Assembly (NCBI GenBank): GCA_016793095.1
Contig: JAEUJQ010000037.1
Location: forward strand, 76,244 to 140,243
Length of the DNA: 64,000 bases
Source of the DNA: Myxococcaceae bacterium
GTDB lineage: Bacteria; Myxococcota; Myxococcia; Myxococcales; Myxococcaceae
Direction of reading: 5' to 3'
In this document: positions 21,583 through 55,851 of the stretch, in pieces
How positions within the stretch are numbered: position 1 is the stretch's first letter
Layout of the letters: each line of letters opens with the position of its first letter
Notes under the pieces: model-generated
Database searches by the model: none
What the model was told of the DNA's origin: nothing
Seen by the model: the letters and a program-made list of their open reading frames with translations, nothing else
Made by a program: the position numbers and the translations under genes

Positions 21583-24456
21583 GTGCGCGCCGACGTGTCG
21601 GTCCAGCTGGTGAACCCACCCGCGGCCCCGCCTCCCGGGTCGTCGCCGCGGGCGCTGGGCCAGGGTCGCCTCGTGACCGCGTCGGGCTGGGAGGTGCCGA
21701 CGCTGAAGGACCCGCGGCTTCCGTTCGGCCTGCTGCTCTTCTCGTACGCCGTCGCGGGCTTCACCTTCCTCGGCTTCAACCGGCAGTGGTGGCAGATGGC
21801 CATCATCATGGGCAGCGCGTCGCTGCTCGAGGTGGCGCTGAGCTGGCTGCTGCACCGGCGGAAGATCGTCCCCGTCTCGGCCTTCATCACGAGCTGCTCG
21901 CTCGCCATCCTCCTCAACTACTCGCACCACTCGTGGGTGCTGCTGTTCCCCGTCTTCCTCGCCATCGGCTCGAAGTACGTGCTCACCGTCGAGGGCCGGC
22001 ACGTCTTCAACCCCGCCATGTTCGGCGTGGCGGTCTCGCTGCTCGTCTCGCGCGAGTGGATCACCGCGGCGCCGGCCTACCAGTGGGCCGGTGGTGACGT
22101 GACCATCAGCGTCTTCATCGCCACCGCCGCGCTCATGCTCTTCCTCTTCCGCGTGGGGCGCGGGCCGCTGGTGGTGAGCTTCCTCGTGCTCTACGCCCTG
22201 CAGACGGCGCTGCGCGCGTACATCATGCGGCACCACCTGCCGTGGCAGACGCTCTTCTTCGGCACCCTCGAGTCGCCGCCCTTCTACCTCTTCACGTTCT
22301 ACATGATCACCGACCCGGCCACGTCGCCGGCCGGCACACGCGGCCAGGTGCTGGTCGCCCTCGCGCTCGTCGTCATCGACGGCGTGCTGCACTTCAAGGA
22401 GAGCGTCTACACGTTCTTCTACGCGGCGCTGACCGTGGGCGTGGTGCGCTTCCTGTGGGCGCACGGCGCGCTGCTGGTGAAGGGTGGCGCGGCCCGGCTC
22501 GCGCGGCTCTTCGACCGGGACTCCTTCCTGCGCGTGGGCGCCGTCGGGGGCCTCGGCGTCGGGCTGCTCACCGCGTGGACGACCGTGCTCGCGCCGCTCG
22601 ACGCGCCGGCCGACGTGGGCTTCCGCTTCGAGCGGGTGGACGTGAAGCAGGCGGGGCTGCACTCCGAGCTGGGCACGACGCTGACCGAGGTCGACCCGCG
22701 CCTGCGCCACGTCGCCAAGTGGGTGCTCTCGGTGGGCGACGCCATCGTGACCGGCGACGTGGACGGAGACGGCTTCACCGACGTGCTGCTGACGCACCCG
22801 CTCGCGACCGCGAAGGACCGCGTCGGGCTGTACCGGAACCGGGGGGACTTCACGTTCGAGCGGCTGCCCCTTCCGGCGCTCGAGCCCTTGATGAACGACC
22901 CGAAGACGCACGGGCTCGCGAGCGGCGGCGTCTTCATCGACGACGACGGGGACGGCGATCAGGACCTGCTCCTCACCGTGGCGTTCGGCAAGACGCGCCT
23001 CCTGCGCAACCGCCTGAAGGAGACCGGCGCGCTCTCGTTCGAGGACGTGTCGCTGGCAGCGGGCCTCGACGCGCACACCGTGTCACTCGCGGCGACCTTC
23101 TTCGACTTCGACCAGGACGGCGTGCTCGACCTGCTCGTCACCAACGCGCTCACCACGCACCTGCCGGACTACGAGGCGCCGACGCCCCTCAACGTCTTCG
23201 CCTTGCCGCCGCCGGCCTCCGAGGGCGACCGCCGCATGTTCCGCTTCATGCACAACGGGTGGCACGACGCCGACAACGGCGGGGTGAACCACCTCTACCG
23301 GGGCCGCGGGGACGGCTCCTACGAGCGCCTCGACGAGAAGACCTGGGGCCTGCCCGAGACCCACTGGACGCTGGCCGTCGGCACCCAGGACTTCAACCAC
23401 GACGGCTTCACCGACCTCTACCTCGCCAGCGACTTCGGCCCCGACGACGTCTACCTGAACGAGGGCGGCCGCCACTTCCGCCGCATCGCGGGGCCGCGCT
23501 TCGGCGACGTCGGCAAGGACACCTACAAGGGCATGAACGTCTCCATCGCCGACTTCGATCGCGACGGCTTCTCCGACGTCACCGTCTCGAACGTGCACCA
23601 CGCGCTGCAGTCCGAGGGCAGCCTGCTGTGGATGGTGCGGCCCTCGAAGAGCGACCCCTTCGTGCCGACCTTCACCGACGAGGCGACGCAGCGGGGCATG
23701 TTGAACGAGCGGCGCTTCGGCTGGGGCGCGGCGGCGGGCGACCTCGACCTCGACGGCTGGGACGACCTCGTGCAGGCGAACGGCATGGTGGACACGCGCC
23801 TCGACCCCGAGCTCCTGACGCCGAGCCGCGAAGGCTTCGAGTGGCCCTGGAACAAGGGGCGCACCGACTACTGGTACGTGAACCAGAAGCTCATGCAGTC
23901 GGGGCCAGACATTCACACGTACGCCGACCGCTGGGGCGACATCCGCGGGCGCCACATCTACGCGAACGAGGCGCGGCGCGCGTACCTGAACCTCGGCCCC
24001 GGCAAGCCCGGCCAGTTCGTCGACGCGGCGAAGGCCCTCGGCGTGGACGACCCGGACAACTCCCGCGGGGTCTTGCTCGCCGACTTCGATCGCGACGGAG
24101 ACCTGGACCTGCTCATCAGCAACCAGCACGGCCCGGCGTCGCTCTACCGCAGCACGCTGCGCTCGAAGCCTGCTCGGCCGCACTTCGTCGCGCTCGAGCT
24201 GCACGGAGCCAGCGGCAACGGGGCGGCGGTGGGCGCGGTGGTGACGGTGAGCGCGACCGTCGAGGGACGTCCACTGACTCAGCGGCGTGAGGTGCAGCTC
24301 ATGGCCGGCTTCGCGGCGCAGGCCGAGCGGCGCCTCCTCTTCGGGCTCGGTGACACGGGTGAGCGACAGGTCGAGGTCACCGTGCAGTGGCCACGCGGCG
24401 ACCGTCGTTCCCTGCGGCTCGACGTCGATGCGCTCCACGTGGTGCGCGAGGAGTAG
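21583..24456 (+). CDS. Polytopic membrane domain fused to FG-GAP/VCBS repeats and a C-terminal ASPIC/UnbV domain (CRTAC1-like)
   Basis: About eight N-terminal TM helices with an RnfD/NqrB-like FNPAMFG motif. Repeated DxDGDGxxD FG-GAP loops. C-terminal LMAGFAAQAERRLLFGLGD (UnbV/ASPIC). GTG start. Confidence 0.85.
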   Translation: MRADVSVQLVNPPAAPPPGSSPRALGQGRLVTASGWEVPTLKDPRLPFGLLLFSYAVAGFTFLGFNRQWWQMAIIMGSASLLEVALSWLLHRRKIVPVSAFITSCSLAILLNYSHHSWVLLFPVFLAIGSKYVLTVEGRHVFNPAMFGVAVSLLVSREWITAAPAYQWAGGDVTISVFIATAALMLFLFRVGRGPLVVSFLVLYALQTALRAYIMRHHLPWQTLFFGTLESPPFYLFTFYMITDPATSPAGTRGQVLVALALVVIDGVLHFKESVYTFFYAALTVGVVRFLWAHGALLVKGGAARLARLFDRDSFLRVGAVGGLGVGLLTAWTTVLAPLDAPADVGFRFERVDVKQAGLHSELGTTLTEVDPRLRHVAKWVLSVGDAIVTGDVDGDGFTDVLLTHPLATAKDRVGLYRNRGDFTFERLPLPALEPLMNDPKTHGLASGGVFIDDDGDGDQDLLLTVAFGKTRLLRNRLKETGALSFEDVSLAAGLDAHTVSLAATFFDFDQDGVLDLLVTNALTTHLPDYEAPTPLNVFALPPPASEGDRRMFRFMHNGWHDADNGGVNHLYRGRGDGSYERLDEKTWGLPETHWTLAVGTQDFNHDGFTDLYLASDFGPDDVYLNEGGRHFRRIAGPRFGDVGKDTYKGMNVSIADFDRDGFSDVTVSNVHHALQSEGSLLWMVRPSKSDPFVPTFTDEATQRGMLNERRFGWGAAAGDLDLDGWDDLVQANGMVDTRLDPELLTPSREGFEWPWNKGRTDYWYVNQKLMQSGPDIHTYADRWGDIRGRHIYANEARRAYLNLGPGKPGQFVDAAKALGVDDPDNSRGVLLADFDRDGDLDLLISNQHGPASLYRSTLRSKPARPHFVALELHGASGNGAAVGAVVTVSATVEGRPLTQRREVQLMAGFAAQAERRLLFGLGDTGERQVEVTVQWPRGDRRSLRLDVDALHVVREE

Positions 24457-37799: not shown

Positions 37800-39485
37800 A
37801 TGCCTCGTCGAGTCACCACGCCGCAGGTCCCCGCCGTTCCTTCTCCCACGCCAGCGACGACGCCGTCCGTCAACGGCACCACCGCGACGCCCGCGACCAC
37901 CGCGGTGAGCGGCGTTCGCGACGCCTTCACCAGCTCGGCGGCGCCGGCCATCGAGACCGTCTTCACGCCCGGCAACCAGGCGCTGCAGATGGAGCTCAAG
38001 GAGCTCGACGCCATCATCAACGCGCGCCGGGCCGACGCCAGGCAGTTCGCCACTCCTGGCGAGAACCCGTACCGGATTCAGTACGCGGTCTACAACCTCA
38101 CTGATCCGCAGGTCATCGCGAAGCTGACCGAGGCCTCGCGCGCCGGCATTCACGTGCAGCTGCTCATCGACTCGGCGCAGATCGCGCCCGACCGGCCCTG
38201 GAACACGGTGGTGGACGAGCTCAAGAGCGCGGGCTTCTCGCACGCCGAGACGCACAAGGGGCTGACCGAGGCTCAACGCCGCGACACGCAGATCATCGAG
38301 ATCGACATGGGGCGGGGCCTCTTCCACCTGAAGGCCCGCACCTTCCGCTACCCGGACCCGCAGACCGGCGCGCTCAAGGAGACGCTCCTCACCGGCTCGC
38401 ACAACCCGCAGGAGTCGGCGCACAAGAACAACGAGAGCCTGCACCGCGTCACCGACCCGGGCCTCATCGCGAAGTACACGGCGGCCATCGAAGCGCTGAA
38501 GGCGGGCAAGCCGATTCAGAACTCGTGGGACGAGGCGGCGCCGGTCAACGTCCTCTTCACCTCGCCGACCGCGAAGGGCACCCGCGTCGCCGACAAGCTG
38601 TTCTCGATGATCCGCGACGAGAAGGAGCTCATCTTCATCTCCGTCTTCACCCTGCGGAACATCACCAACAGCGAAGGGCGGACGAAGCTGGTGGACGAGC
38701 TGGCCGCGGCGAAGGCGCGCGGGGTGAAGGTGACGGTGGTGACCGACCAGAAGCAGGCTGACGGCGTGGACGTGGACGGGAACCCGCGCCCCGACTCGAG
38801 CGACGACGACACCGAGGACCTGCTGCGCGCCGCCGGTATCCCCACGTACGAGGTGACGAACCGCGCGGGCCCGCACACCGCGATGCACCTCAAGTCAGCA
38901 GTCTTCGGCCTCACCGACATGAAGGTCGTCACCGACGCGGGCAACTGGACCTTCTCGGCCATGGGCAGCAAGGCGTCGAGGCCGAAGAACGCCGAGTCGG
39001 TGCTCTTCATCGACTCGAAGAAGGCCGACGGGAACAAGACGGGCATGCAGTACCTCGGCGAGTACCTCAGCATCCTGAGGCGCTACGCCCCGCAGAACCA
39101 CGGCGGCCCCGAGGTCGAGAACCTCATTCGCGACCTGCAGGCCACGCCGGGCTGGCCGAAGGTGAAGGTGAACTTCGACGTCATCGCGCGCACGAACTGG
39201 GGCCAGGACGTCTACCTCGTCGGGAACACCCCCGAGCTCGGCGGCTGGGGCCAGACCGGGCCGGGCCTCAAGCTCGACACCGACTCCAGCACGTACCCGT
39301 CGTGGAAGGCGAAGGACGTCGAGCTGCCGCTGGGCACGACGCTCGAGTACAAGGTCATCAAGCGCAACCCCGACGGCCGCATCGACTGGGAGCCCGGGCA
39401 GAACGCCGTGCTGGTCGTGGACAACTCGCGCACGCAGACGCCGAAGACGCTCGACGTCCGCGATGACTTCAACGGCGACAGTTGA
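37800..39485 (+). CDS. Phospholipase D-like (HKD) protein with C-terminal CBM20-like domain
   Basis: Two HxK...GSHN/GNWT motifs (FHLKARTF...GSHNPQES; MHLKSAVF). C-terminal WGQDVYLVGNTPELGGWG...LEYKVIK resembles a starch-binding domain. 16 bp after the upstream gene. Confidence 0.8.
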   Translation: MPRRVTTPQVPAVPSPTPATTPSVNGTTATPATTAVSGVRDAFTSSAAPAIETVFTPGNQALQMELKELDAIINARRADARQFATPGENPYRIQYAVYNLTDPQVIAKLTEASRAGIHVQLLIDSAQIAPDRPWNTVVDELKSAGFSHAETHKGLTEAQRRDTQIIEIDMGRGLFHLKARTFRYPDPQTGALKETLLTGSHNPQESAHKNNESLHRVTDPGLIAKYTAAIEALKAGKPIQNSWDEAAPVNVLFTSPTAKGTRVADKLFSMIRDEKELIFISVFTLRNITNSEGRTKLVDELAAAKARGVKVTVVTDQKQADGVDVDGNPRPDSSDDDTEDLLRAAGIPTYEVTNRAGPHTAMHLKSAVFGLTDMKVVTDAGNWTFSAMGSKASRPKNAESVLFIDSKKADGNKTGMQYLGEYLSILRRYAPQNHGGPEVENLIRDLQATPGWPKVKVNFDVIARTNWGQDVYLVGNTPELGGWGQTGPGLKLDTDSSTYPSWKAKDVELPLGTTLEYKVIKRNPDGRIDWEPGQNAVLVVDNSRTQTPKTLDVRDDFNGDS

Positions 39486-39492
39486 GCGCGCG

Positions 39493-41076
39493 ATGTCGAG
39501 GCTCCTGTTGCTGGTGACCATCTCCGGCGTCTTCGCCTGTGGAACCACGCCGACCCGTCCCTGCTCGGCGGCGTCCTGCCCGCTCGGCTGCTGCAGCGCA
39601 GGCCGGTGCGAGCCCGGCACGCTCCCGTCGGCGTGCGGAACGAACGGCGCCGCCTGCGTCACCTGTCGAACGGGAGATCAGTGCACCTTGAACCGGTGCA
39701 CGTCCGCGGGTGGCGGGAGTTCTGGCGGCTCCTCGGCTGGCGGCTCCGCGGCTGGCGGCTCCTCGGCTGGCGGCTCCTCGGCTGGCGGCTCCACGGCTGG
39801 CGGCTCCGCGGCTGGCGGCTCCGCGGCTGGCGGCTCCACGGCTGGCGGCTCCGCGGCTGGCGGCTCCGCGGGTGGCGGCAGCGCGGGGGGCATGGCGGGA
39901 GGTGGTGCTGCGCGACGGTGGGCGAACCTGCAGTGGCCCCCCTGGGCGACCCTCGACGCCGGGGCGAGCCTGACGATGTACGGGCAGGTCTGGGTCGAGG
40001 GACGCACGGGCAGCGTCGGCGCGACGCCCGGACTCAGCGGAGAGGTGGGCTTCGGTCCTCACGGCACCCGGCCTGACGACCCGGACGCTGGCTGGAGCTG
40101 GCAGAGCACGACCTTCAACGTGGACGTCGGAAACAACGACGAGGTGCAGGGACCCGTGACGCCGCTGACGCCCGGCGTGTGGGACGTCGCGTTCCGCATG
40201 CGGCTGCCGGCGGCTTTCGCGGGAGCGGTCTTCGGCGACCGGAGCGACCGCGGCCGGGTCGGCAGCGACGACGGCTATCAGACGGAGAACGCAGGCCGGC
40301 TCGTGGTGCCCGGCCCGGGCGCGCGGCTCGAGGTCGCGAGCCTCAACCTCCAGTGCCTCACCGGTGACGTGGCGGCACGGCTCGACGCCGCGGCGCAGCG
40401 GTTCGCACAGCTCGGCACCGACGTCATCGCGCTGCAGGAGGTCTGTGTCCCGGCTCAAGACGCGGGCGTGACCGACACCGCTGAGATGCTCGCTGGCCTC
40501 CTCAGCACGCGCACGGGCCGACGCTGGACGAGCCGCTTCGCCTTCACGCACCTCGCGAACAACGTGACGCCCGAGGGCCTGGGCCTGGTGACGGCGCTGC
40601 CGCTGAGTGAGCTGCAGGTCATCGACCTGCCCGTGGGGGACTTCCAGCGGCGCGCCCTCATCGGCGTCGTCGCGTCCTCCGTCGGCATGGTCGCGGTGGC
40701 GGCGACCCACTTCTCGTTCCGCACCCAGGACGCGCAGGTGCGGGTCGCGCAGGCGAACGCCATCGTCACCGCCCTCGGCCAGTTGATGCCCGCCACGCCG
40801 CGCCAGTTGGTGCTCGGTGACCTGAACGCGATTCCCACCGAGGCCTGCCACGACGTCTTCCGCATGGCGGGCTTCGTCGATGCATGGAACGCAGTGCACC
40901 CCTCCCTCCCCGGCTTCACGCACACGAGCACGAGCCCCACCCGGCGCATCGACTACGTGTGGGCGCGAGGTCCGCTCGACGCGGTCGCGGCGGAGACCCA
41001 GTTCGGCGCCCCCTTCCGCGGTACCGAGTACGTGTCGGATCACCTCGGCCTGACCGTGGAGTTCTCGACGCGCTGA
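39493..41076 (+). CDS. EEP-family lipoprotein with Cys-rich head and Gly/Ser/Ala linker
   Basis: MSRLLLLVTISGVFACG lipobox. About 12 Cys in the first 60 aa. (AGGSx)n linker. EEP motifs DVIALQEV, GDLNAIP, RIDYVWA, SDHLGL. Confidence 0.8.
   Translation: MSRLLLLVTISGVFACGTTPTRPCSAASCPLGCCSAGRCEPGTLPSACGTNGAACVTCRTGDQCTLNRCTSAGGGSSGGSSAGGSAAGGSSAGGSSAGGSTAGGSAAGGSAAGGSTAGGSAAGGSAGGGSAGGMAGGGAARRWANLQWPPWATLDAGASLTMYGQVWVEGRTGSVGATPGLSGEVGFGPHGTRPDDPDAGWSWQSTTFNVDVGNNDEVQGPVTPLTPGVWDVAFRMRLPAAFAGAVFGDRSDRGRVGSDDGYQTENAGRLVVPGPGARLEVASLNLQCLTGDVAARLDAAAQRFAQLGTDVIALQEVCVPAQDAGVTDTAEMLAGLLSTRTGRRWTSRFAFTHLANNVTPEGLGLVTALPLSELQVIDLPVGDFQRRALIGVVASSVGMVAVAATHFSFRTQDAQVRVAQANAIVTALGQLMPATPRQLVLGDLNAIPTEACHDVFRMAGFVDAWNAVHPSLPGFTHTSTSPTRRIDYVWARGPLDAVAAETQFGAPFRGTEYVSDHLGLTVEFSTR
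39711..39905. repeat. In-frame tandem 15-bp repeats (about 12 copies) encoding (S/A)AGGS linker
   Basis: gctggcggctccNcg units read directly. Confidence 0.85.
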
Positions 41077-45851: not shown

Positions 45852-48800
45852 GTGGGTTCGTTCAAGGACGTCTCGTCGGAAGTCGAGTTCGGCGCACAGG
45901 AGCACGGCGTCATCGAGCTGTGGAAGCGGCAGAACACCTTCCAGCGCTCGGTGGACCAGCGCAAAGACGCGAGGAACTTCATCTTCTACGACGGGCCTCC
46001 GTTCGCGACCGGCCTGCCCCACTACGGACACCTCGTCGCCTCGACGCTGAAGGACATCGTGCCGCGCTACTGGACGATGCGCGGCTTCCGCGTCGAGCGG
46101 CGCTTCGGCTGGGACACGCACGGCCTGCCCATCGAGATGCAGGTCGAGAAGACCCTGAACCTCTCGGGGCCACAGAGCATCCGCGAGTACGGCATCGCGA
46201 AGTTCAACGAGGCCTGCCGCGGCTCGGTGCTCACCTACGTCGAGGAGTGGCGCCGCACCGTCACCCGCGTCGGCCGCTGGGTCGACTTCGACAACGACTA
46301 CAAGACGATGGACCTCTCGTTCATGGAGAGCGTCTGGTGGGTCTTCGCCGAGCTGTGGAAGAAGGGCCTCGTCTACCAGGGCCGCCGGGTGATGCCGTAC
46401 TCGTGGCGCCTCTCGACGCCGCTGTCGAACTTCGAGGCCGGCCTCGACTATCGCGACGTCGATGACCCGGCGCTCACCATCCGCCTCGCGCTCGACGAGC
46501 CCATGGGCGGGAAGAAGACCTCGCTGCTCGTGTGGACGACGACGCCGTGGACGCTCCCGTCCAACCTCGCGGTCGCGGTGTCGAACGACATCGACTACGT
46601 GCTGGTCGATCACGAAGACGGCCAGCGGTACGTGGTGGCGAAGGACCTGCTCGCGGCGACGCTGGGCGAGAAGGCCACGGTCGTCTCGACGCTCAAGGGC
46701 AAGGACCTCGTCGGCAAGACGTACGCGCCGCTCTTCCCCTTCTTCGCCGCGCGGAAGCAGGCGGGCGCGTTCCGCGTCATCCACTCCGAGCACGTCACCA
46801 CCACCGACGGTACGGGCCTGGTGCACATGGCGCCGGCCTTCGGTGAAGACGACTTCGTCGCCTGCCAGAAGGAAGGCATCGAGCTGGTCGACCCCATCGA
46901 CCCCGAGGGCAACTTCACGAAAGACGTGCCGCCCTACGCCGGCAAGAACGTGAAGGACGCGGACAAGCAGATCATCCACGACCTCAAGGCGCAGGGCTCG
47001 GTGCTGAAGCACGCGCAGCTCCGCCACCCGTACCCGTACTGCTACCGGTCGGGCACGCCGCTCATCTACAAGACGACGCCGTCCTGGTACGTGAAGGTCG
47101 AGCCGCTGCGCGAGCGCATGGTGGCGAACAACCGCACGATCCACTGGGTGCCGGACTTCGTCGGTGAGAAGCGCTTCGAGAACTGGCTCAAAGAGGCGCG
47201 CGACTGGTCCATCAGCCGCTCGCGCTTCTGGGGCACGCCAATTCCGCTGTGGACGAGCGACGACGGCGCCGAGCTGCACTGCGTCTCGTCGGTGCAGGAG
47301 CTCGAGCAGCTCACCGGCACGACGGTCACCGACCTCCACCCGCACAAGATCGACCACCTCACCTTCACGCAGAACGGCAAGGTGATGAGGCGCATCGGCG
47401 ACGTGTTCGACTGCTGGTTCGAGTCGGGCTCGATGCCGTACGCGCAGCTGCACTACCCGTTCGAGAACAAGCAGGTCTTCGAGCAGGCCTTCCCCGCGCA
47501 GTTCATCGCCGAGGGGCTCGATCAGACGCGCGGCTGGTTCTACACGCTGCTGGTGCTGTCCACGGCGCTGTTCGACAAGGCGCCCTTCAAGAACGTCATC
47601 GTGAACGGGCTCGTCCTCGCGGAGGACGGCTCGAAGATGTCGAAGAGCAAGCAGAACTACCCCGACCCGAACAAGGTCATCGAGCAGCACGGCGCCGACG
47701 CGCTCAGGGCGTACCTCATCAACTCGCCGCTCGTGCGCGCCGAGCCCCTGCGCTTCTCGGAGAGCGGCGTGAAGGAGGTCGTGCGCACGGTGCTGCTGCC
47801 GCTGCAGAACGCGTGGAGCTTCTTCACCACCTACGCGAACGTCGACGGCTGGAACCCGAAGACCGACCTCGCGAAGGCGCCGGCGCTGCAGCAGCGGCCC
47901 GAGCTCGACCGGTGGATCGTCTCGGTGCTGCAGTCGCTGGTGCGCGAGATCAACACGCAGATGGAGGGCTACTACCTCGACCGCGTGGTGCCGCCGATGC
48001 TCGGCTTCATCGACGACCTGACGAACTGGTACATCCGCCGGTCGCGCCGCCGCTTCTGGAAGAGCGAGGACTCGACCGACAAGGCGGCGGCGTACGCGAC
48101 GCTCTACGAGGTGCTGACGACGTTCTCGAAGGTGGTGGCGCCGGTGCTGCCGTTCTTCGCCGAGCGGCTGTACCAGAACCTCGTCGTCGAGCCGGGCCTC
48201 GCGGCGCCGGGCCAGGACAGCGTGCACCTCTGCGACTACCCGCAGCCCGACGAGAAGAAGATCGACCTGCACGTCGAGCAGGCGATGGCGTCGGTGCGGC
48301 AGACGGTGGTGCTCGGCCGGGCGCTCCGTGAGAAGCACAAGCTCAAGACACGGCAGCCCCTCGCGACGCTCACCGTCGTCTCCACGAACGAGGCGGTCCG
48401 CAAGGCCCTCGTCGCCCACGCGGAGCTGCTCGAAGACGAGCTCAACGTGAAGCAGGTGGTGGCGCTCGCCGACGACGCCGCGCTCGCGACGCTCACCTTC
48501 AAGCCGAACCTGAAGACGCTCGGGAAGCGGCTCGGCAAGAAGCTGAAAGACGCGACGACGGAGATCGCCGCCTTCACCCGCGAGCAGTGGGCGGTGCTCG
48601 AGGCTGGTGGCTCCATCACCGTGCAGGGCGAGGCCATCCTCAAGGACGACGTGTTGGTGACGCGCACGGCGAAGGGTGAGGTGGTGGTGGAGTCTGCTGG
48701 AGACCTCACCGTCGCCCTCGACACCCACGTCACCGAGGTGCTGCGCCGCGAGGGGCTGATGCGCGAGGTGGTGTCGCGCGTGCAGAAGCAGCGCAAGGAC

Positions 48801-48998
48801 CAGGGGCTCGAGGTGTCAGACCGCATCGTGCTGACGCTCGCGACGGCCGACGCCGAGCTGAAGGCCTGCTTCACCGAGCACGAAGCCCGCATCAAGGACG
48901 AGGTCCTCGCGGTGAAGCTCGAGGCGCCCGCGACCGCGGAGGGCGAGGCGATGGACGTCGACGGCCACCAGGTGACGGTCAAGGTGACGAAGGCTTGA
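45852..48998 (+). CDS. ileS: Isoleucine--tRNA ligase, type 2 (eukaryote-like)
   Basis: HIGH (PHYGHL) and KMSKS motifs. 1048 aa with no C-terminal zinc finger. GGAGG RBS before the GTG start. Confidence 0.95.
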   Translation: MGSFKDVSSEVEFGAQEHGVIELWKRQNTFQRSVDQRKDARNFIFYDGPPFATGLPHYGHLVASTLKDIVPRYWTMRGFRVERRFGWDTHGLPIEMQVEKTLNLSGPQSIREYGIAKFNEACRGSVLTYVEEWRRTVTRVGRWVDFDNDYKTMDLSFMESVWWVFAELWKKGLVYQGRRVMPYSWRLSTPLSNFEAGLDYRDVDDPALTIRLALDEPMGGKKTSLLVWTTTPWTLPSNLAVAVSNDIDYVLVDHEDGQRYVVAKDLLAATLGEKATVVSTLKGKDLVGKTYAPLFPFFAARKQAGAFRVIHSEHVTTTDGTGLVHMAPAFGEDDFVACQKEGIELVDPIDPEGNFTKDVPPYAGKNVKDADKQIIHDLKAQGSVLKHAQLRHPYPYCYRSGTPLIYKTTPSWYVKVEPLRERMVANNRTIHWVPDFVGEKRFENWLKEARDWSISRSRFWGTPIPLWTSDDGAELHCVSSVQELEQLTGTTVTDLHPHKIDHLTFTQNGKVMRRIGDVFDCWFESGSMPYAQLHYPFENKQVFEQAFPAQFIAEGLDQTRGWFYTLLVLSTALFDKAPFKNVIVNGLVLAEDGSKMSKSKQNYPDPNKVIEQHGADALRAYLINSPLVRAEPLRFSESGVKEVVRTVLLPLQNAWSFFTTYANVDGWNPKTDLAKAPALQQRPELDRWIVSVLQSLVREINTQMEGYYLDRVVPPMLGFIDDLTNWYIRRSRRRFWKSEDSTDKAAAYATLYEVLTTFSKVVAPVLPFFAERLYQNLVVEPGLAAPGQDSVHLCDYPQPDEKKIDLHVEQAMASVRQTVVLGRALREKHKLKTRQPLATLTVVSTNEAVRKALVAHAELLEDELNVKQVVALADDAALATLTFKPNLKTLGKRLGKKLKDATTEIAAFTREQWAVLEAGGSITVQGEAILKDDVLVTRTAKGEVVVESAGDLTVALDTHVTEVLRREGLMREVVSRVQKQRKDQGLEVSDRIVLTLATADAELKACFTEHEARIKDEVLAVKLEAPATAEGEAMDVDGHQVTVKVTKA

Positions 48999-49108
48999 GC
49001 ATCAGCGCGCGGGAGCCTGAGGAAGCGGGCCACCCGGTGACGGTCGGGGTGAACGGCTGAGCACCACCGCTCGAGGCTGACGCTCACGCCTCGGCACCAC
49101 CTCCGTCG

Positions 49109-49836
49109 CTACCGCGGGTCGCGCGAGAGGCCGCACGCGGTGGCGACGTCGTCGCGGTAGACGAGCCAGGCGGACAGCACCTGCTCCATCGAGGCGATGA
49201 CGGCGGCGTGGTCCGCCTCGGGCACGTGGTCGAGCATCACCCTCCAGGCTGCCATGCGGTGCTCGCCCTCGACGCCGCGTGAGCCTTCGTCAGCGCGAGC
49301 GACGCGACCGGCAGCCCATAGTGCTTCACGAGCGGGTGCTGCTCGAGCGGCGGCTCCGGGCGGGGCGGCGCCGAGGGGTCGAAGAGCGCGCGCTCGTGCG
49401 GCGTGCCCTCGAGGAAGAGCGTCACCACCGCCGCGGCGACGCTCCAACCGCGCGTCTGCGTCGCCTCGTCGAGCAGCCCCCGGTACAGCCTCGCGCCCGG
49501 CAGCAGCGTGACGTGCTCGAAGCGCGACACGTCGAACCCGAGGCCCTTCGGGTACTCGAGGAACAGCTCGGGGTGTGGCCGGCCCGCGTGCAGCCCGCCC
49601 GTCTCCTCCTCGTACATGTTCTCAGCCAGCTCGCGGCGCACCGCGGGGATGGGGCACTGCACGTACGCGCGCGCGACCAGCACCGGGAAGTCACGCACGT
49701 AGACCGCGTACTCCTGCTCGAGGTGTACGTGCAGCCGCGCCTTCGCCACCGTGCCGTTCGTGAACGAGCTCCACGCCCAATGCTGCTTCTTCTCCATCAC
49801 CTGGAGCAGCGCCTCGCGGAACCCGTCGCGCGTCAT
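49109..49836 (-). pseudogene. PqqC-like / TenA (haem-oxygenase-like) family gene with apparent +1/-1 frameshift near 49280
   Basis: N-terminal 200 aa in frame A (stop at 49237). C-terminal about 60 aa (EHRMAAWRVMLDHV...) continues in another frame to 49109. Joined, they reproduce the PqqC H-x5-6-H spacing and a typical length of about 240 aa. Confidence 0.6.
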
Positions 49837-49927
49837 GAGGGGATTGTCGGCGCTCCAGCTCGTCGCCTCAAGCCGTGCGCCGCGCGCAGGCGGAACCGGT
49901 CGCGAGTCGTGCAGACGCTGAACGGCG

Positions 49928-50075
49928 CTCCAGCCCGTCCGCGGAGCGCTTCGCCCGTCACGCTCGGAGTGGCGGCGCTTCAGCCCGTCCACCCGCGGAG
50001 CGCTTCGCCCGTCCCGCACGGAGTGGCAGCGCTCGAGCCCGTCCACCCGCGAAGAGCTTCGCCCGTCACACGACA
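49928..50075. repeat. About 53-bp direct tandem repeat, about 2.7 copies, intergenic
   Basis: cagcccgtcc(acc)cgcggagcgcttcgcccgtc(a/c)cgc(t/a)cggagtggc(g/a)gcgct units read directly. Confidence 0.85.
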
Positions 50076-50158
50076 CCCGCAACGCGGTGGACCTGCGCAA
50101 GGTGGACAAGTGGGTCGCGACCGCGGCGAAGCACCCCTCGTCGCCCCAGCCGGTCGCC

Positions 50159-51139
50159 TCAGGCCGTGGGCCGCGGCCCGCTGGACGAGACCAGCCGCAG
50201 CAACTCGACGTACCCGCTGGCGAGCGTCGCGTCTGCGAGCACACCCCGTTCGCCCAGCAGCCGGTGCAGCGCCTCGAGCCGGTGATGCGGCACGGTCATC
50301 AGCAGGTGATGCTCGAGGTGGAAGTTCACGTGGTGCGGCGCGACGGTGAGCCGCGCGAGCAGGTTCGCCTTCGTCGTGCGCGTGTTGCGGAGCGGGTCGG
50401 CTGAGCGCTCGGTGCAGGCGTGCTCGGCGAGCGAACGGAGGCGCAGGAAGAGGCTGAACGTCGTCAGGTACGCCCCGAGCCAGAGCAGCGAGAGCCAGGG
50501 CGCGCCGATGAGCACCGTCACCCCGACGAGCGCGCCGTTCGCCAGCAGCACCGGCCCCAGCCGACGGACACCGAAGGCCAGGACCTCGCCGAGCGGCCGC
50601 CCGCGCCCGGTCCACCGCGCGCCGACCGACGCCGTGTACGTCAGGTACCCGAGGTCCATCAGCGCGAGGCCGACGACGCGCTTGAGGCCGGTGACGCCGA
50701 AGAGGTCTCGCGCCAGCTTGCGCACGAGCGACGCCTTCGAGACCGGGAACGGTGTGACGAGCCCGAGGTCCGGGTCTTCGTCGAGCCCGGTGAAGGAGTG
50801 GTGTCGAAGGTGGTGCTCCCGATACTCGTCGAGGTGCAGCCACACGGGCGCGGCGCACAGCCACGCTCCGACGCCGTCGTTGAGCCAGCGTGTCTTGAAG
50901 AGCGACCTGTGGGACGCCTCATGCATCAGAATGGCGAGCGCCAGCTGCCGGCCGCCGAGCACGACGAGCGCCACGGCGACCGTCAGCGCGTTGGGCCAGC
51001 GCCAGACGAGCGCGAAGGCGAAGGTGATGAGGCTCCACGTCACCACGACGCTCCACGCGCCGCGCACGTCGCTCGCCTCGGTGAGGTGGGCGATCTCCTC
51101 GCGGGTGAGGACCTCGGTCACGCGACGCATCGCCCTCAC
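50159..51139 (-). CDS. Fatty acid desaturase family membrane protein
   Basis: Three His boxes HEASH, HHLRHH and HLEHH plus TM helices. GTG 51139 overlaps the upstream stop (GTGA); an alternative ATG is at 51130. Confidence 0.85.
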   Translation of the reverse strand: MRAMRRVTEVLTREEIAHLTEASDVRGAWSVVVTWSLITFAFALVWRWPNALTVAVALVVLGGRQLALAILMHEASHRSLFKTRWLNDGVGAWLCAAPVWLHLDEYREHHLRHHSFTGLDEDPDLGLVTPFPVSKASLVRKLARDLFGVTGLKRVVGLALMDLGYLTYTASVGARWTGRGRPLGEVLAFGVRRLGPVLLANGALVGVTVLIGAPWLSLLWLGAYLTTFSLFLRLRSLAEHACTERSADPLRNTRTTKANLLARLTVAPHHVNFHLEHHLLMTVPHHRLEALHRLLGERGVLADATLASGYVELLRLVSSSGPRPTA

Positions 51140-51720
51140 CTGAGCCGACGCGCCCGGTCCGATGCAACCGGGGGCCGGCGCTCCCTTTGCGTCAGCAGGT
51201 CGAGCAGCGCGGTCGTGGTGTTCCAGGTGCGAACGGTGAGGTCCTTGTACACGGCGAGGCCCATCAGCTTCGGCAGCCGGCTCTGCGAGGCCTTCGCGAT
51301 GAGCCGGCGGAAGTACAGCGCGTGCGTGCCGGCGCTCACCTCGTCGACGCCCGCCTTCACGCTCAGCTGCGGCAGCACCTGCTTCGCCGTCACCGGCGCG
51401 CGGGCGAAGAGCACGTCGTAGCGGAAGCGGGCCGGCTGCTTGCCGAAGCCCCGCGGCGCCTCGGCGACCGCCCTGCCGAGCTGCGCCGCCGTCAGCAGCA
51501 CCACCTTCGCCGAGTACGAGAAGCGCTTGGCCAGCATCGCCTCGATGGCCTCGCGCGACGGCGCCTTCGCTGCCGAGAACACCACGTTGCCGCTGGCGAT
51601 GTACGTGCGGACCTCGCCAAAGCCGAGCGCCTCGAAGGCCTCGCGCAGCTTCACCATGGGGATGAGGTTGTTCCCGCCGACGTTGATGCCGCGCAGCAGC
51701 GCCAGGTGTCTCGTGCCCAT
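51136..51720 (-). CDS. DUF1697 domain protein
   Basis: N-terminal LALLRGINVGGNNLIPMVKL signature. Confidence 0.75.
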   Translation of the reverse strand: MGTRHLALLRGINVGGNNLIPMVKLREAFEALGFGEVRTYIASGNVVFSAAKAPSREAIEAMLAKRFSYSAKVVLLTAAQLGRAVAEAPRGFGKQPARFRYDVLFARAPVTAKQVLPQLSVKAGVDEVSAGTHALYFRRLIAKASQSRLPKLMGLAVYKDLTVRTWNTTTALLDLLTQRERRPPVASDRARRLR

Positions 51721-51778
51721 GGGCGAGGACTACCCCACGTCGGGGCGGGAAGGGGGAGCGCGAAGGGAGCTCTCGTGC

Positions 51779-52558
51779 TCAGCCGGTGAACGTCAAGGCT
51801 CCGGTCGAGACGAGCCAGGTGAGCACGGGCAGCTGCGCGTCCATCAGGGCGTGAACGACGAGGAGCCACGGCAGCAGCGTGGGCCGGCGGTACACCACGA
51901 GCCCCACCAGGAGCGCGAACGGCAGGAACATGAGCCCCCGCCACGCGAAGAATCGCCAGTCGGGCTCGAGCGGCATCGCGACGTGCTGGACGGCGAGCAC
52001 CAGGGACGGGACGAGCACCGAGGGCGCGCTCGCCCACCCGGCGCGCCGCAACGCCGGGCCCATCTGGCCGAAGTAGAACGGCAGCTCGGCGAGCGCCTGC
52101 GTCACCGGGAAGGCGACCAGCAACACCGCGAGCACGGGGAGCGGCAGCGGGCGGAAGAGCACCGCATTGCCGGTGTCGGGCGCGTCCCACAACACGCTTG
52201 CGAGGGCGACGTTCGGCAGCCAGCCGACGGGCCCGGCGACCACCGTGAAGGCGACGAACCAGCCGAGGTCGCCCTTCCAGGTCGCCCTGCTGAATCGCCA
52301 CAGGCGTCGGACGCCGCCCTCTTCACGTCGCAGGCGGGACAGCAGCGCGATCGTCCCGACGTTGGCCACCGTCACCGACACCAGCCACCAGCGGCCTGCC
52401 GACGAGAACGGCGCGCCGTCTCCAGTCGCCCAGCACACGAGCGCCACGATGGCCTGCGCCCCGGCGATGGCCAGGGCCCGGGACAGGAGCAGCCAGGCGG
52501 CCGAGCGCTCGCTCATGACGGGCTCACTGGCGACGGAGCCAGCCCGCTCCGTCGCCAT
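51779..52558 (-). CDS. Polytopic membrane protein, possibly CPBP/Abi-type intramembrane protease family
   Basis: Six to seven TM helices. Family assignment is weak. An alternative start lies at 52516. Confidence 0.55.
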   Translation of the reverse strand: MATERAGSVASEPVMSERSAAWLLLSRALAIAGAQAIVALVCWATGDGAPFSSAGRWWLVSVTVANVGTIALLSRLRREEGGVRRLWRFSRATWKGDLGWFVAFTVVAGPVGWLPNVALASVLWDAPDTGNAVLFRPLPLPVLAVLLVAFPVTQALAELPFYFGQMGPALRRAGWASAPSVLVPSLVLAVQHVAMPLEPDWRFFAWRGLMFLPFALLVGLVVYRRPTLLPWLLVVHALMDAQLPVLTWLVSTGALTFTG

Positions 52559-52574: not shown

Positions 52575-55340
52575 TCAGCGGTTCACGATCGCCGCGTGCG
52601 CCGCCGCGAGCCGGGCGATGGGCACCCGGAACGGTGAGCAGCTCACGTAGGTGAGGCCGAGGCGGTGGCAGAAGTCGATGCTCTTCGGGTCGCCGCCGTG
52701 CTCGCCGCAGATGCCCACCTCGAGCGTCGGGCGCACCTTCCGGCCCTTCTTCACCGCCATCTCCATCAGCCCACCGACCCCGTTCTGGTCGATGGTCGCG
52801 AACGGGTTCTCGGGGAGGATGCGCTTCTCGAGGTACTCGAGCAGGAAGCCCGTCTCGGCGTCGTCGCGGCTGATGCCGAACGTCGTCTGCGTGAGGTCGT
52901 TGGTGCCGAACGAGAAGAACTCGGCGAGCGAGGCGATCTCGTCGGCCACCACCGCGGCGCGGGGAATCTCGATCATCGTGCCGAACTGGTACTTCACCTT
53001 CACGCCCTGCTCGGTCATCACCTTCTTCGCCTCCTCCTCGAGGATGCCGCGCTCGAAGATGAGCTCGGCCTTCAGCGACGTCAGGGGGATCATCACCTTC
53101 GGGTAGACCTTGACGCCGTCTTTCTGGCACGCGCAGGCCGCCTCGAAGATGGCGCGCACCTGCATGCGCACCAGCGCCGGCAGGTGAATGCCCAGGCGCA
53201 CCCCGCGCAGGCCGAGCATGGGGTTCTGCTCCCGCATGCCGTCCACGGCCGCCAGCATGCGCTTCTGCTTCGACAGCCGGCTCTCGAGGCCGAGGGCGTC
53301 GACCGTCACCCCGTCCATCTTCAGGCGCGTCTCGAGCTCGGTCACCTCCTGCAGCAGCGAGTCGTGGCTCGGGAGGAACTCGTGCAGCGGCGGGTCGATG
53401 AGGCGGATGGTGACCGGCTGCCCGTTCATCGCGCGGAACAGGCCGTCGAAGTCACCCCGCTGCATCGGCAACAGGGCCGCGAGCGCCTCGGTCTGCTCGG
53501 CCTCGTTCGCCGCGAGGATCATCTTCTGCACGATGGGCAGGCGCTCGGTCTCGAAGAACATGTGCTCGGTGCGGCACAACCCGATGCCCTCGGCGCCGTA
53601 GCCACGGGCGCGCTCGGCGTCGCGCGGGTAGTCCGCGTTCGTCCACACGCCCAGCTCGCGGATCTCGTCCGCCCACTTGAGGAGCGTCATCAGGAACGGG
53701 TCGTTGAACTCCGGCACCATGGTGGGCACCTCGCCGGCGAACACCTCACCGGTGGTGCCGTCGAGCGAGACGATGTCGCCCTGGTTGAAGGTGCGACCCT
53801 TCACCGTCATGCGCTTGTTCTCGACGTCCACGTCGAGCGTGGTGATGCCGACGACGGCTGGCTTGCCGAACTGCCGGGCCACCAGCGCTGCGTGGCTGGT
53901 GCGGCCCCCGCGCGAGGTGAGGATGCCCTTCGCCGCGAGCATGCCGTGCACGTCGTCGGGCTTCGTCTCGGGGCGCACGAGGATGACCGACTTCTTCTCT
54001 TTCCGGCCCAGCTGCTCGGCGGTGTCGGGGTCGAACACCACCGCGCCCGTCGCCGCGCCGGGTGACACGTTGAGCCCCTTCGCGAGCAGGTCGCCGCGAT
54101 CCACCGCTGCTTTGCGGGCCTTCATGTCGAACTGCGGGTGCAGGAAGAAGTCCACGTGCTCGGGCTTGACGCGCAGCACCGCCTCTTCCTTCGTGATGAG
54201 GCGCTCCTTGGTGAGCTCGACGGCGATGCGCACCGCGGCCTGGGCCGTGCGCTTGGCGTCACGGGTCTGCAGGATCCACAGCTTGCCGTCCTCGACCGTG
54301 AACTCGACGTCCTGGGTGTCGCGGAAGTGCTTCTCGAGGCGCTGGCAGTGCTTCGCGAACTCGGCGGCCACGTCGGGCATGTCGGCGGTCATGTCCGAGA
54401 TGCGCTTCGTCATGCGCGTGCCCGAGACGACGTCTTCGCCCTGCGCGTTGAGCAGGTAGTCGCCCTCGAGCTGCTTCTCGCCGGTGGACACGTTGCGCGT
54501 GGTGACGACGCCGGTGCCCGAGCGGGGCCCGGTGTTGCCGAACACCATCATCTGGATGTTCACGGCGGTGCCGAGGTCGTGCGCGATGCCCGCGGCGTTG
54601 CGGTAGTCGATGGCGCGCTTGCCGTTCCACGACTTGAAGACCGCCTCGATGGCGAGCCGCATCTGCTCGAGCGGGTCCTGCGGGAAGTCCCTGCCCGTCT
54701 TCTCCTTCACGATGCCCTTGAAGACCTCGGTGACGCCCTGAAGCGCCGCCGCGTCGAGCTGCGAGTCGTTCTCGACGTTGGCGGCAGCGCGACGCTTCTT
54801 GAGCTCGTTCTCGAACGGGTGGTGGTCGAGCTCGAGCACGACGGTGCTGAACATCTGAATGAGGCGCCGGTACGAGTCCCAGACGAAGCGGGTGCGCTCG
54901 GGGTTCGCCGCCAGCGCCGCGGCGATGTCGTCGTTGAGCCCGATGTTGAGGACCGTGTCCATCATGCCGGGCATCGAGAACTTCGCGCCCGAGCGGCACG
55001 ACACGAGGAGCGGCGCAGCGAGGTCTCCGAAGCGACGGCCGCTCTGCACCTGGAGCGTCTCGAGCGCCTTCAGCACCTGCGGCCAGAGGTCCTTCGGGAA
55101 GCCCTTCGCGTCGAAGTACGCGTTGCAGGCCTTCGTCGAGACGATGAAGCCCGGCGGGACCGGCAGCCCGAGCCGCGTCATCTCGCACAGGTTGGCGCCC
55201 TTGCCTCCGAGCAGGCCCTTCTGATCAGCCCGCCCCTCCTTGAAGAGGAAGACCCACTTGGTGCTGGCGACCTTCTTCGCCCCCTTCTTCGCCTTCTTGC
55301 CCGACTTCGCACGCACTCGCTTCTCGCTGAGGTTGGCCAT
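52575..55340 (-). CDS. ppdK: Pyruvate, phosphate dikinase
   Basis: GGKGANLCEM, GGRTSHAALVARQFGKPAVVG and GICGEHGGDP motifs. 921 aa with a Lys-rich N-terminal extension. Confidence 0.93.
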   Translation of the reverse strand: MANLSEKRVRAKSGKKAKKGAKKVASTKWVFLFKEGRADQKGLLGGKGANLCEMTRLGLPVPPGFIVSTKACNAYFDAKGFPKDLWPQVLKALETLQVQSGRRFGDLAAPLLVSCRSGAKFSMPGMMDTVLNIGLNDDIAAALAANPERTRFVWDSYRRLIQMFSTVVLELDHHPFENELKKRRAAANVENDSQLDAAALQGVTEVFKGIVKEKTGRDFPQDPLEQMRLAIEAVFKSWNGKRAIDYRNAAGIAHDLGTAVNIQMMVFGNTGPRSGTGVVTTRNVSTGEKQLEGDYLLNAQGEDVVSGTRMTKRISDMTADMPDVAAEFAKHCQRLEKHFRDTQDVEFTVEDGKLWILQTRDAKRTAQAAVRIAVELTKERLITKEEAVLRVKPEHVDFFLHPQFDMKARKAAVDRGDLLAKGLNVSPGAATGAVVFDPDTAEQLGRKEKKSVILVRPETKPDDVHGMLAAKGILTSRGGRTSHAALVARQFGKPAVVGITTLDVDVENKRMTVKGRTFNQGDIVSLDGTTGEVFAGEVPTMVPEFNDPFLMTLLKWADEIRELGVWTNADYPRDAERARGYGAEGIGLCRTEHMFFETERLPIVQKMILAANEAEQTEALAALLPMQRGDFDGLFRAMNGQPVTIRLIDPPLHEFLPSHDSLLQEVTELETRLKMDGVTVDALGLESRLSKQKRMLAAVDGMREQNPMLGLRGVRLGIHLPALVRMQVRAIFEAACACQKDGVKVYPKVMIPLTSLKAELIFERGILEEEAKKVMTEQGVKVKYQFGTMIEIPRAAVVADEIASLAEFFSFGTNDLTQTTFGISRDDAETGFLLEYLEKRILPENPFATIDQNGVGGLMEMAVKKGRKVRPTLEVGICGEHGGDPKSIDFCHRLGLTYVSCSPFRVPIARLAAAHAAIVNR

Positions 55341-55460
55341 GGTGCCCGGGCGCTGTGCATCGTGCGGGCCATGCGCGCTCCCGGCTGACCGCGGACAAGA
55401 CGCGCAACCCTTGCGCGAAGGGGTTGGCGGCGGGGCGGACTTGCGCTCCACTGACGGGCC

Positions 55461-55778
55461 ATGAGCAAGGCTGACAAGGAAGATGACGAGGGGACGATTG
55501 AGAACCGCGTGTACCTCTTCGAGTCGCTCGCGCGCGGCTTCGTCGAGAAGGCGGCGGACGACCTGTCGGGGAAGAACCCCGAACGACGGGCGCGGGCCCT
55601 GAAGGCGCTGGCCGACCTCGCGTACGTGAGCTGTGTGGTGGCCGACACCGGGCAGGCGTCGCCGAAGGCAGTGCGTCGCAGGGTGCTGGCCGCCATCGCG
55701 CTCGAGGCGCCGGTCGCTGAGAGGCCAGAGGACGAGGAGTCCGACGAGGACGGCGACGACCCGCACGCCGAGGACTGA
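55461..55778 (+). CDS. Small acidic hypothetical protein (105 aa)
   Basis: Divergent from ppdK. Coherent sequence with an acidic tail. Confidence 0.45.
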   Translation: MSKADKEDDEGTIENRVYLFESLARGFVEKAADDLSGKNPERRARALKALADLAYVSCVVADTGQASPKAVRRRVLAAIALEAPVAERPEDEESDEDGDDPHAED

Positions 55779-55851
55779 AGGTGCCCGCCTTCGACGCGAG
55801 GCCTCACGCTTCTTCATGGTGTGGCATGGAGCGCTCCGCTACCTCTGGTGC

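Follow-up and report, generated by a model that had tools for sequence, protein, structure and literature searches.

Do the two short reading frames that lie next to each other on the minus strand at 49109-49836 encode two proteins, or are they the halves of one gene? The window analysed here (the whole stretch of DNA under study, 64,000 nucleotides with a G+C content of ~71%) comes from a metagenome-assembled genome (MAG) contig of 204,243 bp labelled 'Myxococcaceae bacterium'. In GenBank the two halves are independent CDSs that carry no frameshift or pseudogene flag. MBL8920136.1 (199 aa, 'iron-containing redox enzyme family protein') is identical to the upstream piece, and MBL8920135.1 (48 aa, 'hypothetical protein JNJ54_14815') corresponds to the ORF at 49109-49255. 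The break therefore sits in the deposited assembly, since GenBank has exactly the same two pieces. A preliminary description of this DNA had proposed that a single-base frameshift splits one gene, and it is almost certain that one gene, broken in this way, occupies 49109-49836.

Reading frames and orthologues

When the two frames were derived anew, the coordinates and both peptide strings of the preliminary description were recovered. On the minus strand, frame A opens at ATG 49836 (MTRDGFREALL...) and runs for 199 codons to a TGA at 49239-49237. Frame B stays open between 49621 and its TAG at 49111-49109; from ~49297 it reads ...SRGVEGEHRMAAWRVMLDHVPEADHAAVIASMEQVLSAWLVYRDDVATACGLSRDPR, and toward the TAG it encodes ...RGVEGEHRMAAWRVMLDHVPEADH... 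A longer 335-aa ORF with a GTG start at 50244 was rejected, as the coding signal starts near 49878 and ATG 49836 is the start that matches the MTRD(G/E)F with which all orthologues begin. The features of the locus are as follows.

49109-49836, minus strand: the whole gene, almost certainly single, for a 242-aa heme-oxygenase-like (PF14518) protein once repaired
49237-49836, minus strand: N-terminal piece in frame A, with 186 authentic codons (M1-H186), 13 out-of-frame codons (AASRASTAWQPGG) and TGA
49237-49278, minus strand: out-of-frame tail of frame A, 13 codons plus TGA, with a GC3 of 71% versus 96-98% in the true frames
49279-49280, minus strand: site of the missing base, one gap relative to seven orthologous loci
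49109-49279, minus strand: C-terminal piece in frame B, R187-R242 plus TAG, with E190 (49270-49268) and H193 (49261-49259)
49109-49255, minus strand: 48-aa ORF from ATG 49255 (MAAWRVML...), in truth the 3' end of the HDO-like gene

How do orthologues of this gene look? With the joined sequence as query, a collection of 5.8 billion proteins yielded 3641 homologues, and the best 120 of these were inspected. They are 72-93% identical to the repaired protein, 238-277 aa long (most 239-245), and each is a single protein covering 98-100% of the query. When one genome per species was scanned, 317 loci were confirmed, and in the 80 of them that were kept the match is one unbroken stretch from residue 1 to ~239. 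Nearly all of the kept loci come from Myxococcota MAGs, in addition to Sandaracinus, Enhygromyxa, and Nannocystaceae isolates. An intact single ORF of about 239-242 codons, spanning both pieces, is thus present in all orthologues inspected (120 proteins and 80 genomic loci, with identity up to 93%), and one inserted base turns the two pieces into a full-length protein that is colinear with every one of them. The preliminary description would have been abandoned if full-length orthologues ended together with frame A and the segment downstream had no homologue; instead, orthologues run past the stop codon of frame A, and the frame-B segment has strong homologues.

The same picture emerges from the window itself. 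In a tblastn search with the repaired protein, residues 1-186 match 49836-49279 and residues 187-242 match 49279-49112 in the adjacent frame, with base 49279 included in both segments. The 199-aa piece matches PF14518 in Pfam over profile positions 5-110 of 177 (49 bits), and repair extends the match to positions 5-176 of 177 (58.3 bits; cut-off 28.9). Frame B has a GC3 of 98% over its 56 codons, and its alignment with the C-terminal ends of 82-93% identical orthologues is residue by residue and 100% colinear. The similarity of frame B is therefore not due to chance, given its GC3, the extended Pfam match, and its residue-for-residue alignment with orthologue C-termini. Is it conceivable that the protein naturally ends at 199 aa and that what follows is a coincidence? 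GenBank annotates a 199-aa CDS, and nothing else speaks for this idea, whose probability is negligible. In the 20-member cluster at 90% identity only two members are shorter than 239 aa, and the other short one is a 131-aa protein from a 1.9-kb Logan contig; furthermore, the Pfam domain would be cut at position 110 of 177, while a downstream frame fully colinear with orthologue C-termini would be left unexplained.

At which position is the base missing? Aligned at the DNA level with seven orthologous loci, the window shows exactly one gap column, reading GCT CA-CGC GGC GTC GAG versus GCN CAY CGY GGY GTS GAR in the orthologues. At the protein level every orthologue has SLALTKAH-RGVEG(E/D)HR, of which SLALTKAH comes from frame A and RGVEGEHR from frame B. 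Because of the gap column and the double use of base 49279 by the tblastn segments, the lost base is placed at the His186/Arg187 boundary, between 49280 and 49279 (CA|CGCGG on the minus strand). In the alignment it may equally be read as the third base of the His186 codon or as the leading C of the Arg187 codon. The insertion point given in the preliminary description, gcggcg|tcgag, was ~7 nt too far 3' by comparison with the seven loci. As a consequence its repaired peptide TKAHAAVEGEH should be read as TKAHRGVEGEH, with RG in place of AA and the length of the protein unaffected; the H-x6-H spacing that it had pointed out holds with either insertion point.

Family and fold of the encoded protein

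Which kind of protein does the repaired gene encode? By sequence it is a member of the PF14518 heme-oxygenase-like 'iron-containing redox enzyme' family. Within this family it probably belongs to an uncharacterised HDO-type oxidase/oxygenase subfamily of Myxococcota, putatively dimetal, for which both metal binding and chemistry are predictions. The subfamily (P0001-P0120) is large (>3600 matches) and tightly conserved (omega ~0.1-0.2), and it has no characterised member. The AlphaFold (AF2) model of P0001, an orthologue with 93% identity, is all-helical with a pLDDT of 92.9. In a Foldseek comparison of this model with the PDB, CADD came first (TM 0.70-0.80), followed by PqqC, TenA, UndA, BesC, and FlcD, at 10-18% identity; all of them belong to the superfamily with the heme-oxygenase-like fold. 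Among solved structures, those closest in sequence are CADD/CT610 and related 4-aminobenzoate synthases, with an E value of 0.04 for the single sequence; a 71-sequence profile searched against the PDB has its best match in 9PJ4 (E 7e-5).

HDOs (heme-oxygenase-like diiron oxidases/oxygenases) hold a dimetal cofactor by a conserved set of three histidines and three carboxylates on core helices 1-3 (PMC7848743). Among the 71 homologues, H186, R187, E190, H193, R194, E76-E78, H88, and E143 are invariant. In the profile alignment H186-x3-E190-x2-H193 falls on the H-x3-D-x2-H of the pABA synthase 9PJ4, and in a pairwise alignment E77 and H88 fall on E81 and H88 of CADD. H-x3-E-x2-H is thus the putative core-helix-3 metal-binding motif, and the invariant E143 may be the equivalent of the core-helix-2 Glu. 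Similar to UndA, BesC, SznF, FlcD, and RohS, the protein belongs to PF14518 and appears to have the core-helix-3 ligand motif H-x3-D/E-x2-H; UndA, BesC, and FlcD are also among its fold matches. In contrast to these HDOs, the myxobacterial protein is a single domain of ~240 aa, widespread in Myxococcota, encoded outside any recognisable biosynthetic cluster and without a characterised function or substrate.

CADD/CT610 (PDB 1RCW, 8VA9, 9PJ4; TIGR04305) is both the best structural match and the best PDB match by sequence and profile. It shares the seven-helix heme-oxygenase-like bundle, and the H-x3-(D/E)-x2-H and EE...H motifs of the two proteins align. However, their identity is only ~15%, and the myxobacterial family has a 4-residue insertion between the Glu and the His of the first motif. 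The CADD model TIGR04305 is the sole match in NCBIfam, but with 37.4 bits it lies far under the cut-off of 200. CADD sacrifices Tyr27 to make pABA (PMC9522330), and this residue aligns with an invariant Trp22 in the myxobacterial family. The low TIGR04305 score, Trp22 in place of the sacrificial Tyr27, and the 4-residue insertion led to the rejection of a CADD-type pABA synthase.

Is the protein related to PqqC, as its first designation 'PqqC-like' implied? This is justified at the level of superfamily and fold: PqqC (PDB 1OTW, 5VRC) belongs to the same fold superfamily (TM 0.67-0.71), and there is a weak partial match to PF03070 TENA/THI-4/PQQC (24.9 bits versus a cut-off of 22, profile positions 21-126 of 210). 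At the family level the designation does not stand, as PF14518 is the better Pfam match, CADD is the closest structure, and no PqqC model matched in the NCBIfam scan of the protein. To our knowledge PqqC has no metal cofactor, whereas the HDO-like family appears to keep a set resembling the three histidines and three carboxylates. No pqqA, pqqB, pqqD, or pqqE gene adjoins it in the window or in any syntenic locus that was examined. PqqC identity was therefore rejected, the neighbours being genes for IleRS, a fatty-acid desaturase, a DUF1697 protein, and a PPDK-like protein, with no PqqC model and no pqqABCDE context. Some JGI records call orthologues 'pyrroloquinoline-quinone synthase'. There are many such labels on the subfamily, and the family tests applied here do not support them.

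The truncated product and possible ways around the break

Translation of the sequence as it is written would leave the frame right after His186, add 13 wrong residues (AASRASTAWQPGG), and stop. The break lies inside the H-x3-E-x2-H motif, ten residues into helix 177-204 of the P0001 model. The product would retain the first part of the helical bundle; E190, H193, the larger part of helix 177-204, and helix 207-234 in its entirety are lost. Because these two residues and the helices downstream of the break are missing, conservation and fold suggest that the product as encoded should be inactive. No mechanism of rescue is visible in the sequence: there is no slippery site, and residues 187-194 (RGVEGEHR) are in neither annotated piece, because the 48-aa ORF from ATG 49255 begins at M195.

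Could the sequence as written still give an enzyme? Programmed -1 ribosomal frameshifting or transcriptional slippage might bridge the break and produce a full-length protein, which would carry the junction peptide ...TKAHRGVEGEHR... The shift required is indeed -1, and the downstream frame is perfectly kept. Nevertheless, bridging is highly improbable. Frame A has no X XXY YYZ slippery heptamer at 49240-49621, where both frames are open, homopolymers within 90 nt of the break reach 3 nt at most, and CAC, the His codon in the P site, is unable to re-pair on UCA one base back. Moreover, programmed shifts are conserved, but a frameshift is found in none of the 120 orthologue proteins and none of the 80 loci. 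No terminator-like or promoter-like consensus was found in 48800-50300.

It might also be proposed that two pieces (199 aa and 48 aa) are translated separately and assemble non-covalently as a working enzyme. GenBank annotates both pieces, and the last 19 nt of frame A overlap the ORF that begins at ATG 49255, so that translational coupling is possible. Such an assembly is most unlikely, as RGVEGEHR, including the invariant E190 and H193, would be encoded by neither piece. The only start further upstream in frame B is TTG 49447, which is preceded by 65 nonsense codons, and no split orthologue occurs among the 120 proteins and 80 loci. The chance that the sequence is correct and a working enzyme is made all the same, by unconventional -1 recoding at CAC-GCG or by a two-piece assembly that tolerates the loss of residues 187-194, is very small.

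Origin of the missing base and the state of the locus

Is the missing base an error or a mutation? The preliminary description had offered a sequencing or assembly error and a genuine inactivating mutation, and this is the right pair of options. The gene is otherwise free of decay, which fits either an error or a very recent event. Where a column is ≥95% conserved in 132 homologues, the repaired protein never deviates, versus a median of one deviation for the other sequences. For the 56 codons after the break, median dN/dS is 0.22 in pairs with the window versus 0.21 between orthologues; for the part before the break, the values are 0.16 and 0.20. Relaxed selection was not detected in the downstream piece by dN/dS, conserved columns, or GC3. 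As the rest of the gene looks to be under normal purifying selection, the lesion is either very recent or no biological event at all.

There is about an even chance that the cause is an artefact (a consensus or assembly indel) or an unfixed strain variant captured in the MAG. This explanation has to contend with the lack of positive evidence of error. The lesion lies outside any homopolymer (context CA[C]CGCGG, with a longest nearby run of 3 nt), and among ~40 other ORFs of the window no second domain is cut at a frame change, which indicates that the assembly is not generally indel-prone. That survey consisted of Pfam scans of the ~40 ORFs and reaches only ORFs with a Pfam match. A GC3 frame scan marked several junctions between adjacent genes on the same strand, none of which is backed by Pfam as a split gene. 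Seven ORFs of >900 aa are intact, and the flanking IleRS and PPDK-like genes align with their orthologues over the full length. Frameshifted genes at a frequency of ~1% are normal in real bacterial genomes, so one in ~55 genes is also expected from real pseudogenes.

Two further observations from the survey of the window concern other loci. In a 957-aa ORF at 21583-24456, FG-GAP repeats and a C-terminal ASPIC/UnbV domain occur together with a weak NQR2/RnfD/RnfE-like match at the N-terminus (residues 52-265). Such a combination is unusual, and the N-terminal match may be spurious or come from an over-extended start. At 39714-39884 on the minus strand there are several short, repeated, low-complexity tblastn matches (proline-rich, PEPP-like). 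They are antisense to a plus-strand ORF at 39463-41076, which ends in an Exo_endo_phos domain, and this suggests a repetitive stretch of DNA.

Has the region around the gene changed in this lineage? In the close relatives represented by loci L001, L004, L007, and L013, the orthologue lies between an upstream PPDK-like gene and a downstream convergent IleRS gene; in L004 it has the PPDK-like gene as its immediate upstream neighbour. In the window, the PPDK-like gene (52575-55817) and the HDO-like gene lie ~2.7 kb apart, with the following features between them.

51779-52558, minus strand: hypothetical gene, 259 aa, no Pfam match
51136-51720, minus strand: DUF1697 gene
50159-51139, minus strand: fatty-acid desaturase gene (PF00487)
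49925-50069, intergenic, between the desaturase stop (50159) and the HDO-like start (49836): tandem repeat with a period of 54 bp, 2.8 copies, and 86% matches

The desaturase and 259-aa genes have no counterpart in any of 80 related loci. For the DUF1697 gene there is a protein match in only one of the 80 and, at the DNA level, only a weak match, in L056. In L003 a different minus-strand gene takes the position upstream of the orthologue. The block at 50159-52558 probably represents an insertion specific to this lineage, or else a variable region; its lack of counterparts in the 80 loci, together with the different gene in L003, indicates that the region upstream of the gene varies between lineages. 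The 54-bp tandem repeat inflates the spurious 335-aa ORF from GTG 50244.

This remodelling of the upstream region bears on the origin of the lesion, as it could accompany a real loss of the gene and so counts against an artefact. That the deletion is real, recent, and fixed, which would make the locus a young pseudogene of a conserved HDO-like gene, has a probability somewhat below even. It agrees with the break being present, and annotated as such, in the deposited sequence, with an assembly that looks clean (no other frameshift in the ~40 ORFs), and with the lineage-specific 5' neighbourhood, made up of the block of desaturase, DUF1697, and hypothetical genes and the 54-bp repeat. However, secondary decay is zero by conserved columns, unchanged dN/dS, and a GC3 of 98%. 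Strong purifying selection acts on the family (omega ~0.1-0.2), all relatives inspected have the gene intact, and a tblastn search found no paralogue in the window that could compensate for the loss.

Does a second copy from the same strain exist? Exact look-ups of IleRS, the DUF1697 protein, the 192-aa neighbour, and both gene pieces led to the NCBI record only, and a search for encoding contigs returned no record for the 199-aa product. The closest intact protein is 93% identical. A scan of JGI metagenomes for either allele (CTGACGAAGGCTCA[N]CGCGGCGTCGAGGGCGAGCAC) found nothing, and the GTDB representatives that were scanned for loci do not include the source genome. On balance, we lean slightly towards an artefact or an unfixed variant over a fixed real mutation.

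What does this locus mean for the organism and the family? It follows the textbook pattern of frameshift-split genes in draft genomes and MAGs, with no difference: a single-base indel leaves two neighbouring same-strand CDSs which jointly make up one orthologue, and the downstream piece is named 'hypothetical protein'. It is an ordinary broken gene or an assembly error, of a kind already known, and not a new mechanism; no open question is made testable by it. Its main value lies in curation, as MBL8920136.1 and MBL8920135.1 should be merged, whether as a frameshifted or pseudo feature or as a single corrected gene. Should the deletion turn out to be real and fixed, a HDO-like enzyme that is uncharacterised but otherwise highly conserved in Myxococcota would be naturally knocked out in this MAG, and this, if true, would be a modest hint for students of the family.
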